Shown here: positions 9,046-18,827 of the stretch, piece after piece
How positions within the stretch are numbered: the stretch's first letter is position 1
How the letters are laid out: each line of letters begins with the position of its first letter
NCBI RefSeq assembly: GCF_022045235.1
Contig: NW_027266266.1
Coordinates: 48,298,001 to 48,362,000, forward strand
Reading direction: 5' to 3'
DNA length: 64,000 nt
Origin: Haliotis cracherodii
Taxonomy: Eukaryota
The notes under the pieces: generated by a model
Database searches by the model: none
What the model saw: the letters and a program-made list of their open reading frames with translations, nothing else
What the model was told of the DNA's origin: nothing
Made by a program: the position numbers and the translations under genes

Positions 9046-9313
9046 GTCGCATCCGTTTCCGGGGAGGAGGGATGGGGAAAACCCGGAGAAGCGCACGTAC
9101 AAGGTGAACAAGATCGACATGGTTGTTGTTCTTTTGTCGTTCTAAAAATAGAAATAGAAAAGGCGGTGGGGGTGAAGGGAGGGTGAGGGAGGGAGGGAGG
9201 AGGAGGAGGAGGAGGGGGGTGGGTTCACGGTGTGGTGGGGGTTGGAGGGTCGTCAAAGCAAAGGAGGAAAAGCTGTCTTTCGGGAGAGATGGGTGGCCCT
9301 GAAAAGGGCCGTT
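9046..9313 (+). repeat. Left terminal inverted repeat (outer ~300 bp missing)
   Basis: Reverse complement of 18262-18528, essentially identical apart from a 1-nt homopolymer difference. Confidence 0.93.
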
Positions 9314-9320
9314 TTGATGC

Positions 9321-9625
9321 TTACATGCATGTGCACGCCATGGTGCAAAGGCACGGGTGGGCTTTCATTTCGCGTCTGACAGGACACCTACTGGTGTGCG
9401 TTAACCGACGCATGTAGGTGTCCTTCAGCACAGTGCCGCAGTACACGCACTCGAAAGTCCCATCCCGTACCCTTGTACCAAGGTCATAGACGGGCAGGCC
9501 CCCATGGCACCTGGCACATTGCCACGCTGGAGACCATGGTGGTGGGGGTGGTGATGCTTCTTTCCACCCGGGCAAAGGTTGTGTTACTCTGGCGATCTCT
9601 AGATCCCAGTTTTCCGACTTGATGT

Positions 9626-9656
<31 letters not shown>

Positions 9657-9662
9657 CATCAT
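9321..9662 (-). CDS. Element-encoded 113-aa zinc-ribbon protein (CARC...CVYC, Pro-rich, Cys-rich C-terminus)
   Basis: ATG ~50 nt downstream of TATAAAA (9711-9717) of promoter copy 1; the ORF ends 8 nt before the TIR. Confidence 0.6.
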
Positions 9663-9708
9663 GATGAATCAATTTTACAAGTGACACTGACCCACTCGAA
9701 TCCACTCT

Positions 9709-9976
9709 TGTTTTATAGGAGAGGCACTGACACCCTGCCTCCCGGTTGGTTCGCCAGGCCGCAGCTCCGATAGGTTCGTTCCGGGGCCTGGCCCGCACCT
9801 CGGTTATCCAAAATGGACCGACCCCTGTGTTTCTTTTCCATAGGAAATGGATTTTACCATGGGAGAGAAAGCACAACCCCGGTTCGGCCAATCAGAGTCC
9901 CGCCTGGCCCGAGCGCCGCCTCTGATTGGTCCGCAACCCAGGCTTCGGATTGGTCCGATTTCGATCCGGTTTTTTT
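9709..9976 (-). promoter_or_regulatory. Element promoter module copy 1 (multiple CCAAT boxes + TATA)
   Basis: Paralogous to 14175-14410 and 17265-17500; CCAATCAGAG...CTCTGATTGG pair; CTCCTATAAAA. Confidence 0.75.
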
Positions 9977-10627
9977 CCTTGGGTAGCCTTGGTATATTTT
10001 TAGGTAGACGGTCGTCTGAATGCTAAAGGAAAGGTGGACCTTCATAGGTAGACATGAACGTGGGAATGCCTACGTGATGTACGTTGTGTCACCCCCATGC
10101 CAATCGGCATGTCATGTGTGTGTGTGTGTGTGAGTGTGTATGTCTTCAAACAGACGTTGACGTTGATGTATAGAATAGCGTGTTGTCAAGCAAAACGTGG
10201 TGTCCTGTGTGTGTGTGTGTCTACAACCATGGATGTCGTATTGAGATGAATAGAGAAAGATCGATACACCTGCTCGACGTTTGCACATGTCATGGACTTC
10301 GTGTCGCGATGTGAACGTCATGTACTTTGTGTGTTGCCATGCAAACGTAGTGTCATGTGTGTGTGTGTGTTTTCAAATTATTATTATTATTATTATTTAA
10401 GGATACCGAGGTGTTGACACCCGTGTAAGTCGACAGACGTACTGTGACACGTGTTTTCATGCATACGTGATGTTTGACGTGGTGTACTACGTGTCTCTAT
10501 TGATCTATTGATATATCTATTTATTGTATTTTTAGACGTGTGTCTCCAAGAGGTCTAGGGGAGGGTGTGGGTTCTTTGTTTTGGAGGGGTGGGGTTGGCA
10601 AAGCAAAGGAGGAAAGTTGTCTTTTGG

Positions 10628-15940: not shown

Positions 15941-16528
15941 AGACAGAAGAGCTTGAAGAGGGAAGAGGAAAACGTTGTCGCGTTATTGTTGTTGTTGTTG
16001 TTGTTGTAGGGACATGCAAAGCACTCCCTCCTCCATTGACTTTTCGTATTTCCATTGTATCTGGTTGTGATTGTTTTTTTCATTATTAAACAGTGATTGA
16101 TTGAACTGACTCTTTGTGTCTTGATTGATCTCAACTCCAATAGAGTGCCGAACCGAGGGTAGAGGTTGAGTTGAGATGTCGTTTACGTCGTCTGTCCGTC
16201 TGTGCGTCTGTCATGTCAGTGCACACCGAAGTGTAAAATTAAAATAAAAATAGATAAAAGAGAAAGGCTATGCTTGAAAGATCAGCTGCCTGGTGTCAGT
16301 CATTCCAGTACGCACCGATACCCCACACCCACCGTGTGCCATGTCATGTCATGTATCATGTCATGCATCATGTCGTGTGTCCGTCAACCCAAACACAGGA
16401 TGACGTCACGTAATGAGGTTGAGGAGGTGGAAGCTAGGGTCATGACCTTCTGTTGAAGGGATTAGGGTGGAGAGTTTCATAAAAGCAGACGAACCCTCAG
16501 ACCTTCTTTCAGTGAAGTCACAGTCATC

Positions 16529-17059
16529 ATGGAGCAAAGACGTTCTATGAATGCCATGTCATCCTCCCGAGATGTCGTCACCGATTCCGAGTGGGTGTCT
16601 GATAAGGCGGGAGAACAAGAAGCGAGAAAACGTCCACTCTTTATGGACGACACACTCTTGATGGACGACACATGGCGACTCAGTGACATTCTGGAGAGAT
16701 CTTTTCCTTCTTACACCTTGTGTCATCCTTCTCATCCCAACTATGATTCATTTCAAGAACGTCTGAGGTCTTTTCAAACGTGGCCTAAACAGATGACCCA
16801 GACCCCTTATGACATGGCCATGGCTGGCTATTTCTATCCAGGAGGAGGTGACTGTGTTCTCTGTTATTGCTGCGGTGTGACACTCCGCCAATGGGAAGCC
16901 ACAGACCAACCCTGGAAAGAACATCTGAAGCACGCCAAAGTCCCCTGCGAATACTTGTGTGTGTTTTGTCCTGATGGAGAAGTGAACGAAAGATACAGAC
17001 GTTTGGTGTCCCAAGAAGCACGGAAGAGAAGAGTCGAGTGTCTTGTACACCCCAAGTGA
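16529..17059 (+). CDS. Single-BIR-domain inhibitor-of-apoptosis (IAP)-like protein, no RING
   Basis: ERLRSFQTWP...MAMAGYFYPGGGDCVLCYCCGVTLRQWEATDQPWKEHLKHAKVPC; upstream CATAAAAG (16478) and TGACGTCA (16401). Confidence 0.9.
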   Translation: MEQRRSMNAMSSSRDVVTDSEWVSDKAGEQEARKRPLFMDDTLLMDDTWRLSDILERSFPSYTLCHPSHPNYDSFQERLRSFQTWPKQMTQTPYDMAMAGYFYPGGGDCVLCYCCGVTLRQWEATDQPWKEHLKHAKVPCEYLCVFCPDGEVNERYRRLVSQEARKRRVECLVHPK

Positions 17060-17264
17060 CAAAGTTTCTTTCTTTTTTTCAAAGTGTACAGACGTTCATA
17101 CCCTCGTGGTCACCCCCGTGGTCACCCATCGTGTTCACAAAAATCACAGGGATGTCCCCCCTCATCCTGTGACTTTTGTTTTGTTGTGTTGGTACATGTG
17201 ATCAGGGGGATTAAAAAAAAAGAAGTTGAACTCATAGCCGTGTTATGTTGTCTGTAGGATGAAG

Positions 17265-17500
17265 AAAAAAACAAAACAGGATCGAAATGCACACCCCGAT
17301 AAAAACTGATTGGCCGAACCGGGGTTGTGCTTTCTCTCCCATGTTAAAATCCATTTCCTATGGAAAAGAAAAACAGGGGTCGGTCTGTTTTGGAAAACCG
17401 AGGTGCTGGCCAGGCCCCGGAACGAACCAATCGGGGGCGCTGCCTGGGGAACCAATCAGGAAGCAGGGTGTCAGTGCCTCTCCTATAAAAACAAAACAAG
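17265..17500 (+). promoter_or_regulatory. Element promoter module copy 3
   Basis: CTGATTGGCCGAACCGGGGTTGTGC...CTCTCCTATAAAA, nearly identical to copy 1; TATA at 17484. Confidence 0.75.
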
Positions 17501-17529
17501 AGCGAAGCCACTCACACACACTGCATTCT

Positions 17530-18099
17530 ATGAAACCCATCATGTCAGCTCGATACAGTTGTATGAAGTGCCAGACCGACAGTCACAGTTACCTGTACTG
17601 CCCTGAAGTGACATGCTTCCAGTGTCAAGGTCACCGTCACTATGTTTGTCCGAAGATGAGCAGTCAAGAGAAGCAGGAGAATCGGAACCTGTGCCTCTGT
17701 TACAACTGTGAAGCCATGGGTCATTTCGCTGCAGATTGCCCAGAACCCAGTCGAAAGAAGACTCCCCATCGCCTGGACCGCTGTTACAACTGTCGAGCCC
17801 TGGGTCATTTCGCTGCAGATTGCCCAGAACCCAGTCGAAAGAAAACGTTAGCAACACCGTCCACGTCGACACCCGTGGCATCCGTGGCACCCGTGACACC
17901 CGTGACACCCGTGACACAAGTGCTTCATCTCATCGAAGACATGCATGTCGATGTCCTCGACCTAAAAGAATGCCTCACACAACCCCGTGCAGGCATCACA
18001 CCTCGTCTAGAGAAAAGAAAACGGGACAGAAGCCCCTCAAGAAAACACGCTTCAAAGCGCCGACGACACCTTCAGTCCGAGGATGAGATGGATGTATAG
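17530..18099 (+). CDS. Multi-CCHC zinc-knuckle protein with C-terminal NLS-like basic patch (start 17530 or 17542)
   Basis: CMKCQTDSHSYLYC, CYNCEAMGHFAADC and CYNCRALGHFAADC plus a degenerate CFQC knuckle; KRKRDRSPSRKHASKRRR; ATG ~45 nt after the TATA. Confidence 0.8.
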   Translation: MKPIMSARYSCMKCQTDSHSYLYCPEVTCFQCQGHRHYVCPKMSSQEKQENRNLCLCYNCEAMGHFAADCPEPSRKKTPHRLDRCYNCRALGHFAADCPEPSRKKTLATPSTSTPVASVAPVTPVTPVTQVLHLIEDMHVDVLDLKECLTQPRAGITPRLEKRKRDRSPSRKHASKRRRHLQSEDEMDV

Positions 18100-18261
18100 G
18101 ATAAAGAAGATAGATCATCTGAACAAAGTGACTAACGCATGGGCCATGCTGCCCCACTGTTTTTACCAGTTTCCCATCGTTTGCAGTTTTTCCAGTGTTC
18201 CAGTGTTCCTGCCGTTTCCTGCCGTTTCCTGTCGTTTCCTGTCGTTTCCAGTTTGTTTTCC

Positions 18262-18827
18262 AACGGCCCTTTTCAGGGCCACCCATCTCTCCCGAAAGAC
18301 AGCTTTTCCTCCTTTGCTTTGACGACCCTCCAACCCCCACCACACCGTGAACCCACCCCCTCCTCCTCCTCCTCCTCCCTCCCTCCCTCACCCTCCCTTC
18401 ACCCCCACCGCCTTTTCTATTTCTATTTTTAGAACGACAAAAGAACAACAACCATGTCGATCTTGTTCACCTTGTACGTGCGCTTCTCCGGGTTTTCCCC
18501 ATCCCTCCTCCCCGGAAACGGATGCGACGCCATCTTGAAGGCGTACGCCACCGGACACGGATGCGACGCCATCTTGAAGGCGCACGCCACCGGACACGGA
18601 TGCGACGCCATCTTGAAGGCGCACGCCACCGGACGCGGATGCGACGCCATCTTGGAGGCGCGCGCCACCGGAAACGGATGTGCCGTCATCTTGGATGCGC
18701 ACGCAAATCCATCATGCCCCGCGCGCATGCGCAGGTCGCGTGACCGGATGTGACGTCACAGAGGTCACGTGATCCTCTCGACCAATCAGAAGCTAGGAGC
18801 GGTTCTGACGTAAGGCGTACGACTACT
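18262..18827 (-). repeat. Right terminal inverted repeat (566 bp), complete
   Basis: Matches the left TIR over 267 bp and continues to the terminal ACTACT at 18822-18827. Confidence 0.9.
18512..18704 (+). repeat. ~5 x 39-bp tandem repeat inside the TIR
   Basis: CCGGACACGGATGCGACGCCATCTTGAAGGCGCACGCCA units starting at 18512, 18551, 18590, 18629 and 18668. Confidence 0.92.

Follow-up and report, generated by a model that had tools for sequence, protein, structure and literature searches.

A damaged PolB-bearing element in the window

The window analyzed here is a 64,000-nucleotide stretch of the genome of the abalone Haliotis cracherodii (contig label C3:48,298,001-48,362,000; other loci are given below by contig label and position in the same way), and the element under study is the GC-rich island at positions 9046-18827 of that window. 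It is flanked by inverted repeats (9046-9313 and 18262-18528) that pair over two arms of 173 and 99 nt with 100% complementarity, its right end is a terminal ACTACT (18822-18827), and Pfam matches identify a protein-primed DNA polymerase B (pPolB, hereafter PolB; PF03175, E 1e-34), a BIR domain (PF00653, E 2e-19) and zinc knuckles (PF00098, E 5e-12). Integrase, ATPase, protease and capsid were looked for in the element with zero matches. The exons of an acidic zinc-finger gene join in frame through a GT donor at 15161 and an AG acceptor at 15291. To this extent the results bear out a first-pass annotation of the same DNA, which had listed these genes and absences from the letters alone, together with a zinc ribbon that proves to be an open Cys-rich gene without a Pfam family above cut-off. 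The interpretation differs: the locus is probably a dead segment A of a bipartite Polinton, in which PolB and accessory genes reside on one element (A) and integrase, ATPase, capsids and protease on another (B).

The window element is a dead copy of segment A (Table 1). The inverted repeats annotated earlier as terminal inverted repeats (TIRs) are real, but the left TIR lacks its outer ~300 bp, including the AGTAGT end, and the target duplication is gone as well, possibly as the result of a deletion mediated by microhomology to the TIR repeat. A second deletion of ~1.9 kb at ~10630 has removed a second BIR gene (BIR1), one promoter module and the first ~245 codons of PolB, including the terminal-protein region. 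The PolB frameshift falls around a 10-nt tandem repeat (11559-11598). In all, PolB carries 2 disablements in 3521 nt and the accessory genes 1 in 2473 nt (Poisson P(<=1) = 0.59); the single accessory disablement counted is the premature stop near the end of the zinc-knuckle gene, and the BIR1 deletion comes on top of it. The contrast drawn earlier, of a decaying PolB beside accessory genes that stay open, is thus at chance level: the zinc-knuckle gene is truncated and BIR1 deleted, the remaining accessory genes are open, and the family as a whole is not losing PolB. Exon 2 of the acidic zinc-finger ("oncoid"-like) gene encodes an Asp run, paired CxxC and an LxCxD-like motif (the last in full-length copies). 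The repeated CCAAT-rich modules number four in full-length A and one in B; their placement ahead of each open reading frame (ORF) suggests that they act as promoters.

Segment A is a recurrent, PolB-bearing family

Searches were made of one assembly, which represents one individual, and scored the best 90 of 463 candidates for PolB, 95 of 378 for capsid, 138 of 1986 for integrase and 40 of 475 for the TIR. The PolB search gave 97 matches, 21 of them with open frames of 1426-1433 codons. The fetched copies have a common layout (TIR, zinc-ribbon gene, BIR1, PolB, oncoid-like gene, BIR2, zinc knuckle, TIR), and 23 of the 25 copies with both ends measure 10.6-11.9 kb; the distinct compact family that had been offered as one possibility is found, its capsid-less, integrase-less organization of ~10-12 kb recurring with 6-bp target-site duplications (TSDs), and its copies are not ordinary full-length Polintons. 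Full open PolB is kept in 19 of the 25 TIR-bounded copies, and exonuclease and polymerase motifs are present in PolB of the reference copy. A copies have AGTAGT ends and 6-bp TSDs and encode no integrase; because such duplications are the mark of a retroviral-type integrase, A must be integrated in trans, in keeping with the mobilization in trans suggested in the first pass. In 11 older A copies PolB shows 2.8 disablements per kb versus 1.9 for the accessory genes (p = 0.04), and one fetched locus (C12:56.1 Mb) has accessory genes without PolB.

Some A copies vary at their ends: at C78:61.5, C12:40.46 and C45:51.37 Mb the zinc-knuckle gene is at both ends, the zinc-ribbon gene is at both ends, or the latter is lost, variants that would be accounted for by end exchange through inverted promoter modules. 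At C1:41.9 Mb an A element has an unrelated integrase-ATPase element nested inside it (C1:41.919-41.924 Mb); an A copy with its own acquired integrase was considered there and ruled out, since the integrase belongs to the nested element. That element is one copy of a separate multicopy element, also found at C4:12.796-12.804 Mb, with an integrase (35-39% identical) and an A32-like ATPase in inverted duplicate, and with no PolB or capsid match.

Among the sequencing runs listed as holding the A stretch, none is recorded as RNA. At 85% likeness, all 30 bins of the A stretch are covered by contigs from one probable DNA run and three probable RNA runs, the latter belonging to three studies; coverage at this level is not assignable to the window copy and gives no ranking of genes. 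A GT..AG joint (15517>15861) occurs in two of the probable RNA runs and not in the probable DNA run (sides of 21-24 nt, 85% likeness); the exon 1-exon 2 joint of the oncoid-like gene is not among the joints listed. These observations give a weak hint that members of the A family, as distinct from the window copy specifically, are transcribed and spliced.

Segment B carries the missing genes

The TIR search of the genome returned 94 matches and led to a PolB-less element of 10.6 kb with the same ends and a TSD. The partner at C45:66.71-66.72 Mb has ORFs for an ATPase (PF04665), an rve integrase with chromodomain, a penton-like protein, a capsid and a protease, and none for PolB. In full, B encodes the ATPase, three unnamed ORFs, the integrase, a small hydrophobic ORF, the penton-like protein, a Gly/Arg-rich ORF, the major capsid and the protease, mostly within 9.9-11.6 kb. 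The integrase (rve E 4e-12, plus chromodomain) has DDE-type motifs and is absent from A. The capsid model (pLDDT, the predicted local distance difference test, 89; 86 sequences) has the Sputnik capsid as its best match (E 8e-17) and also resembles the double jelly-roll capsids of virophages, iridoviruses and chloroviruses; on this predicted fold the B major capsid is a double jelly-roll capsid. The nearest clusters to the protease by Atlas features are Peptidase_C5. The penton assignment is a lead: the Atlas score to a Sputnik minor-capsid cluster is 0.97 with low recognition, and the position of the gene also fits.

The capsid search gave ten full-length matches that are 97-100% identical; all ten were fetched and all are of B type, one being a segmental duplicate. 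The five core ORFs are open in 6 of 13 TIR-bounded B copies. Genome searches with Pfam Pox_A32 and Peptidase_C5 mostly returned other families. Collecting copies, as the first pass had proposed, has thus yielded a PolB-less partner with the same ends that holds exactly the genes missing from A.

A and B are separate elements with shared ends

Among 49 elements with both ends mapped there are 25 A, 13 B and none with both gene sets (at >=60% identity); exact 6-bp TSDs are present in 45 of the 49. The 59 classed loci comprise 25 A, 20 B, 1 mixed and 13 that belong to neither class, namely satellites and a distant relative that falls below the 60% cut. Ten further loci, picked for lacking a paired TIR word and hence possibly longer, are 8 A and 2 B. 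Ten loci with an integrase match divide into 6 of the B lineage, 1 A that contains the nested foreign element, 1 that is itself a foreign element and 2 distant relatives; in one of the B-lineage loci a fragment of PolB lies 3.5 kb beyond the TIR. Exact matches to a 24-nt TIR word number 95 in the genome (control, 0), of which 74 form 37 facing pairs spanning 8.1-11.8 kb and 21 are unpaired (hand count). Of 67 capsid loci, just 3 have one of the 90 PolB loci within 40 kb. The first is a distantly related one-piece element, the second involves a separate A copy bounded by TSDs, and the third is an old fragment. The notion that shared TSD words mark duplicated loci held for 1 of 4 pairs only and was rejected. 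Integrase, ATPase, protease, capsids and penton are thus on B only and PolB on A only; none of the 49 elements with both ends combines the core genes as a 15-25 kb Polinton does, and by gene content neither A nor B alone is an autonomous Polinton, while the pair would work like one.

Both segments have AGTAGT ends, TIRs of the same family and 6-bp target duplications. A tree built from 150 nt of each of 41 ends splits at its deepest node (support 100) into an older and a younger TIR type, each of which includes A, B and satellites. One A end and one B end are identical over the 150 nt. Hybrid ends occur in two young A copies, and a B copy whose coding sequence is young has the old TIR type. 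A single clade of B TIRs is rejected by the approximately unbiased (AU) test (p = 3.4e-5; 11 B ends against 19 A ends, excluding the satellites and a B row with a long branch). Two of the properties expected of a multipartite genome are found: essential genes divided in complementary fashion between molecules, and conserved, co-evolving termini.

The ratio of non-synonymous to synonymous change (dN/dS) was calculated from single-base variants relative to the commonest codon of each column, without transition correction, and variants shared by at least two copies were counted apart from private ones. Shared-variant dN/dS is 0.25 for PolB (150 N, 173 S), 0.22 for capsid, 0.15 for integrase, 0.22 for ATPase, 0.25 for penton and 0.23-0.65 for the A accessory genes; private-variant values are 0.41-0.77. 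By this codon-based measure the inherited variants in A and B alike are under purifying selection, which implies that both halves were functional while spreading. The comparison of accessory genes with PolB called for in the first pass thus confirms constraint on the former and finds it on PolB too.

Satellites and one-piece families

Five young satellites are near-perfect palindromes of 8.7-9.9 kb, with arms 99.3-99.9% alike, the family TIRs and exact TSDs; five older satellites of 2.5-7.4 kb have the same ends and exact TSDs. The satellites encode only an 86-aa gene that is also found at the B left end, and each young arm also has repeat arrays. For this reason the 8.7-9.9 kb class was rejected as a third coding segment; the palindromes are likely snap-back satellites, close enough to A and B in length to be consistent with a possible limit on packaged size.

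At least three other Polinton families of the genome are in one piece. A relative at C4:10273017-10289514 (16.5 kb) has its own TIR, the TSD GTCGTC, and PolB and capsid matching at 41-54% and 49%, respectively. In this copy and in another at C10:10.47 Mb PolB lies head-to-head with the virion module; the C4 copy also has a BIR gene and an ORF that we take to be PC4-like. A young family of ~18-19 kb (C2:46.40-46.42 and C5:38.85-38.87 Mb) combines a zinc-finger/endonuclease VII PolB with an integrase and a capsid, and a young 14.9 kb family with AGTAGT ends is found at C4:41.96-41.98 Mb.

Likely fossils of a one-piece ancestor

Seven older, decayed loci hold PolB and B genes in cis. At C23:52.5 Mb an A-like PolB 3' end is joined to B-like integrase, penton and capsid, and its linker ORF used as query gave 19 matches; of the nine fetched, six have PolB and B genes, one has ATPase and BIR genes, and two are without a B gene. 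The best fossil (C7:8.15-8.17 Mb) reads, on one strand, TIR, PolB, linker, ATPase, ORF o2, integrase, ORF o6, penton, ORF o8, capsid, protease, TIR. Neither the A clade (22 rows, support 100) nor the B clades (support 97-98) include the mixed loci, whose end branches measure 0.05-0.09 versus 0-0.05; on these sequence comparisons they are likely fossils of a one-piece ancestor. A and B radiate in parallel old and young waves, each with fixed junctions in old and young copies. Some forms of the old layer have BIR2 directly behind the ATPase (C5:39.34-39.35 and C67:42.93 Mb), and others lack PolB and have a BIR gene behind the protease; both may be intermediates, the ATPase-BIR2 ones toward segment A. 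An ancestor with protease followed by BIR2 was also considered and is not borne out by the fossil maps.

For 11 of the 18 proteins listed in the nearest H. asinina capsid family (74%), a PolB accession is at most 4 numbers away, and by this adjacency the sister lineage is probably one-piece. Two H. asinina proteins of 151 aa named "Caspase-2-like" (P0266 and P0268) cluster with, and have accessions beside, the PolB of this one-piece family, and perhaps represent a CARD-type accessory gene. Proteins almost identical to those of the present elements are labelled Haliotis. In H. rufescens both the A-type PolB (90%, 17 proteins) and the B-type capsid are present; only two capsid accessions are comparable there, and neither is near a listed PolB.

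Features of the window

The features of the window copy are collected in Table 1 with the remaining ORFs of the window, whose names are our own presumptions, and the positions of the young satellites. A ATATCGCAATGTC-type short repeat is common to both flanks of the element (9020-9048 and 18828-18940).

Table 1. Features of the segment A copy, other ORFs in the window, and young satellites elsewhere in the genome.
Feature	Position	Strand	Remarks
Inner left TIR	9046..9313	.	Inverted-repeat match; outer part, AGTAGT end and target duplication absent
Small Cys-rich (zinc-ribbon-like) gene, 113 aa, open	9321..9662	-	Kept across A copies, shared-variant dN/dS 0.23; no Pfam family above cut-off
Repeated promoter-like module, CCAAT-rich, TATA-like end	9711..9975	-	92% inverted match to 17306-17490
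Deletion junction	10629..10631	.	Blocks 10331-10631 and 10629-17305 map 1.9 kb apart in full-length copy
Broken protein-primed DNA polymerase B	10629..14126	+	5' deletion; stop 10985-10987; one frameshift; then 896-codon open frame
Promoter-like module ahead of acidic zinc-finger gene	14149..14390	+	
Two-exon acidic zinc-finger ("oncoid"-like) gene	14622..15793	+	Intron 15161-15291
Single-BIR (IAP, inhibitor-of-apoptosis-like) gene, open	16529..17059	+	ORF and Pfam match
Promoter-like module ahead of zinc-knuckle gene	17306..17490	+	
CCHC zinc-knuckle gene	17530..18099	+	Premature stop slightly short of the usual end in the family
Right TIR, complete, older type	18262..18827	.	39-nt tandem repeats 18473-18706, terminal ACTACT
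Presumed glycosyltransferase-like ORF	6619..7407	-	DxD motif
Presumed Ty3/Gypsy-like retrotransposon	33728..39279	+	Open gag (400 aa) and pol (1507 aa) frames; named from motifs
Presumed Tc1-like transposase fragment	42523..43347	+	
Presumed TRIM-like RING/B-box ORF	61426..62709	+	
Young palindromic satellites	C2:54.23, C6:36.13, C7:14.79, C9:0.38, C14:15.72 Mb		

Discussion

The best reading of these data is a bipartite Polinton that consists of two complementary deletion lineages; from their gene contents, A and B likely depend on each other. PolB made by A, with its fused terminal protein (a fusion described for Polinton pPolB in the portion of PMC11161782 that treats it), would prime the copying of A, B and satellites from their common AGTAGT ends; integrase made by B would insert all three, and capsid, penton, ATPase and protease made by B would package them. 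A alone could copy linear molecules and not insert or package them, while B could insert and package and not copy. Co-replication would allow ends to be swapped by template switching, so that the TIRs stay alike. The origin would lie in two complementary deletions, probably aided by the repeated promoter modules, of a one-piece ancestor with the order BIR1 <- PolB -> oncoid -> ATPase -> ... integrase -> penton -> capsid -> protease, which would then have become extinct in this genome.

Several observations weigh against this scheme. No virion, no free linear DNA and no complementation has been observed. The census covers loci drawn from the top of the search lists. Proteins acting in trans could also be supplied by the other one-piece Polinton families of this genome, at least three in number and with AGTAGT or other ends. 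Every mixed fossil is internally deleted, one 3.1 kb locus bounded by TIRs and a TSD (C31:0.66 Mb) is a deletion form with pieces of both gene sets, and the DNA trees that place the mixed loci are FastTree trees with midpoint roots. TIR labels are clustered beyond shuffles (for A, 9 changes against a mean of 13.8, 4 of 500), which indicates that end exchange is episodic. Constraint is weak, on few variants, for o2 (0.71), the protease (0.56) and the zinc knuckle (0.65). Finally, the protein trees disagree on the placement of H. asinina: in the PolB tree, a quick tree, the PolB of A is sister to other Haliotis families, while in the capsid tree the capsid of B groups with H. asinina, a conflict that could reflect fast PolB evolution or module exchange before the split.

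The presence of one-piece families (the 16.5 kb relative, the ~18-19 kb family and the 14.9 kb AGTAGT element) would allow A and B to be independent defective lineages that parasitize other, autonomous Polintons, their complementarity being a by-product without dependence; in butterflies, too, PolB-less Polintons occur beside PolB-bearing relatives, according to the portion of 10.1101/2025.02.07.637071 that deals with them. This is nevertheless improbable, because the TIRs of the other families are unrelated to those of A and B past the first 6-7 nt, whereas A and B share and swap TIR variants and radiate in parallel waves, and because a full helper would leave no expectation of purifying selection on the PolB of A or the integrase and capsid of B, yet such selection is seen. 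Slightly less probable still is a young one-piece parent that persists as an exogenous virus or in unassembled DNA, with A and B as defective-interfering forms dependent on it. One-piece ancestors of the same TIR family did exist, and a single assembly and its best-ranked candidates were examined; but a young parent with a working integrase should top both the PolB and the capsid lists, and none was found among the best matches of the PolB, capsid and integrase searches of this assembly, all fetched top matches being A-only or B-only. The mixed loci are moreover all old and outside the A and B clades, and the A and B junctions are fixed across ages. Public viral contigs searched for a helper held nothing close; among metagenome contigs 6 loci matched, the best of them (72%) on a contig of 2 kb that offers no context.

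The first-pass annotation had read the element as a derivative in the course of losing PolB, reduced to a cassette for host manipulation (anti-apoptotic, cell-cycle). Constraint on the accessory genes, the faster decay of PolB in older A copies and the PolB-less locus at C12:56.1 Mb speak for such a derivative, which is nonetheless highly implausible: PolB is full-length and open in most bounded A copies and is itself under constraint, the accessory genes of the window copy are kept no better than chance with BIR1 deleted, and the small difference in PolB decay may stem from its indel-prone repeats. The bipartite Polinton thus remains the preferred interpretation. It is possible, though slightly less likely than not, that it is in addition a naturally multipartite animal double-stranded (ds) DNA virus, with A and B each in double jelly-roll virions sized for ~9-12 kb and co-infecting the abalone germ line, the one-piece ancestor displaced, palindromic satellites doubled in length to fit the capsid, and the host genome preserving a record of the entire passage from a monopartite to a bipartite state, with its intermediates. 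Purifying selection on the capsid genes and the similar lengths of A, B and young satellites are the observations that relate to packaging.

It has long been an open question how and why viral genomes come to be divided, and a 2016 review, in its available text, lists as multipartite in animals only the single-stranded (ss) DNA bidensoviruses and one RNA virus, with polydnaviruses excluded (PMC5094692). If the present reading is true, it adds a rare two-part genome for a dsDNA virus, and, if the segments are packaged separately, a multipartite animal dsDNA virus with its origin recorded in the host genome. With the likely ancestor, possible intermediates, both segments and satellites kept as datable insertions, the complementary-defective model becomes directly testable. 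The host genus is a farmed and wild mollusc, and both halves occur in more than one of its species. A Polinton survey pipeline described in part of 10.1101/2023.08.22.554363 requires all core genes within 20 kb; pipelines of this kind would discard both halves as defective, so split Polintons elsewhere may be overlooked. No bipartite or segmented Polinton was found in the literature searched, mostly open texts without supplements or Repbase, where such elements could be annotated.

Comparison with known systems

Taken together, A and B resemble Polintons/Mavericks (adintoviruses, polintoviruses) in pPolB, rve integrase, A32-like ATPase, adenain, double jelly-roll capsid, penton, TIRs, AGTAGT ends and 6-bp TSDs, and accessory IAP and "oncoid" genes are known from adintoviruses (PMC8502044, in part). 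However, Polintons as described in the available text of PMC8097293 have all core genes on one molecule, of ~17 kb in vertebrates, whereas here they are split over two elements of ~10-12 kb with co-evolving ends. PolB-less Polintons with transposable-element cargo in Pieris and other insects are likewise mobile without polB, but they coexist with complete PolB-bearing relatives, and the available portion of 10.1101/2025.02.07.637071 has no complementary PolB-only partner. Cytoplasmic linear plasmids derived from Polintons have pPolB and TIRs and have lost the virion module (PMC11161782, in part); unlike segment A, which is integrated with TSDs, they do not integrate and have no capsid-bearing partner.

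Among bipartite systems, the closest parallels are bidnaviruses and two groups of plant viruses. Bidnaviruses (bidensoviruses) have a Polinton-derived pPolB on one segment and matching termini on both (PMC8502044, in the section available), but differ from A and B in being ssDNA viruses with a parvovirus-type capsid and no integrase, and in not being endogenous. Bipartite endogenous florendoviruses and complementary non-autonomous plant pararetroviruses also have two complementary components, deduced from genomic fossils, with near-identical, recombining non-coding regions (PMC4241990; PMC5491270, both in part); those are reverse-transcribing, circular plant systems without integrase, whereas the present system is linear dsDNA, protein-primed, integrase-driven and animal, with likely fossils of its one-piece ancestor in the same genome. 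In the model of Park and Higgs (2023), as set out in the available text of PMC10223652, a monopartite virus A gives rise to D (capsid, no polymerase) and E (polymerase, no capsid), which are able to eliminate A. That model is theoretical and concerns an RNA virus; the abalone elements would be a dated natural case in dsDNA.

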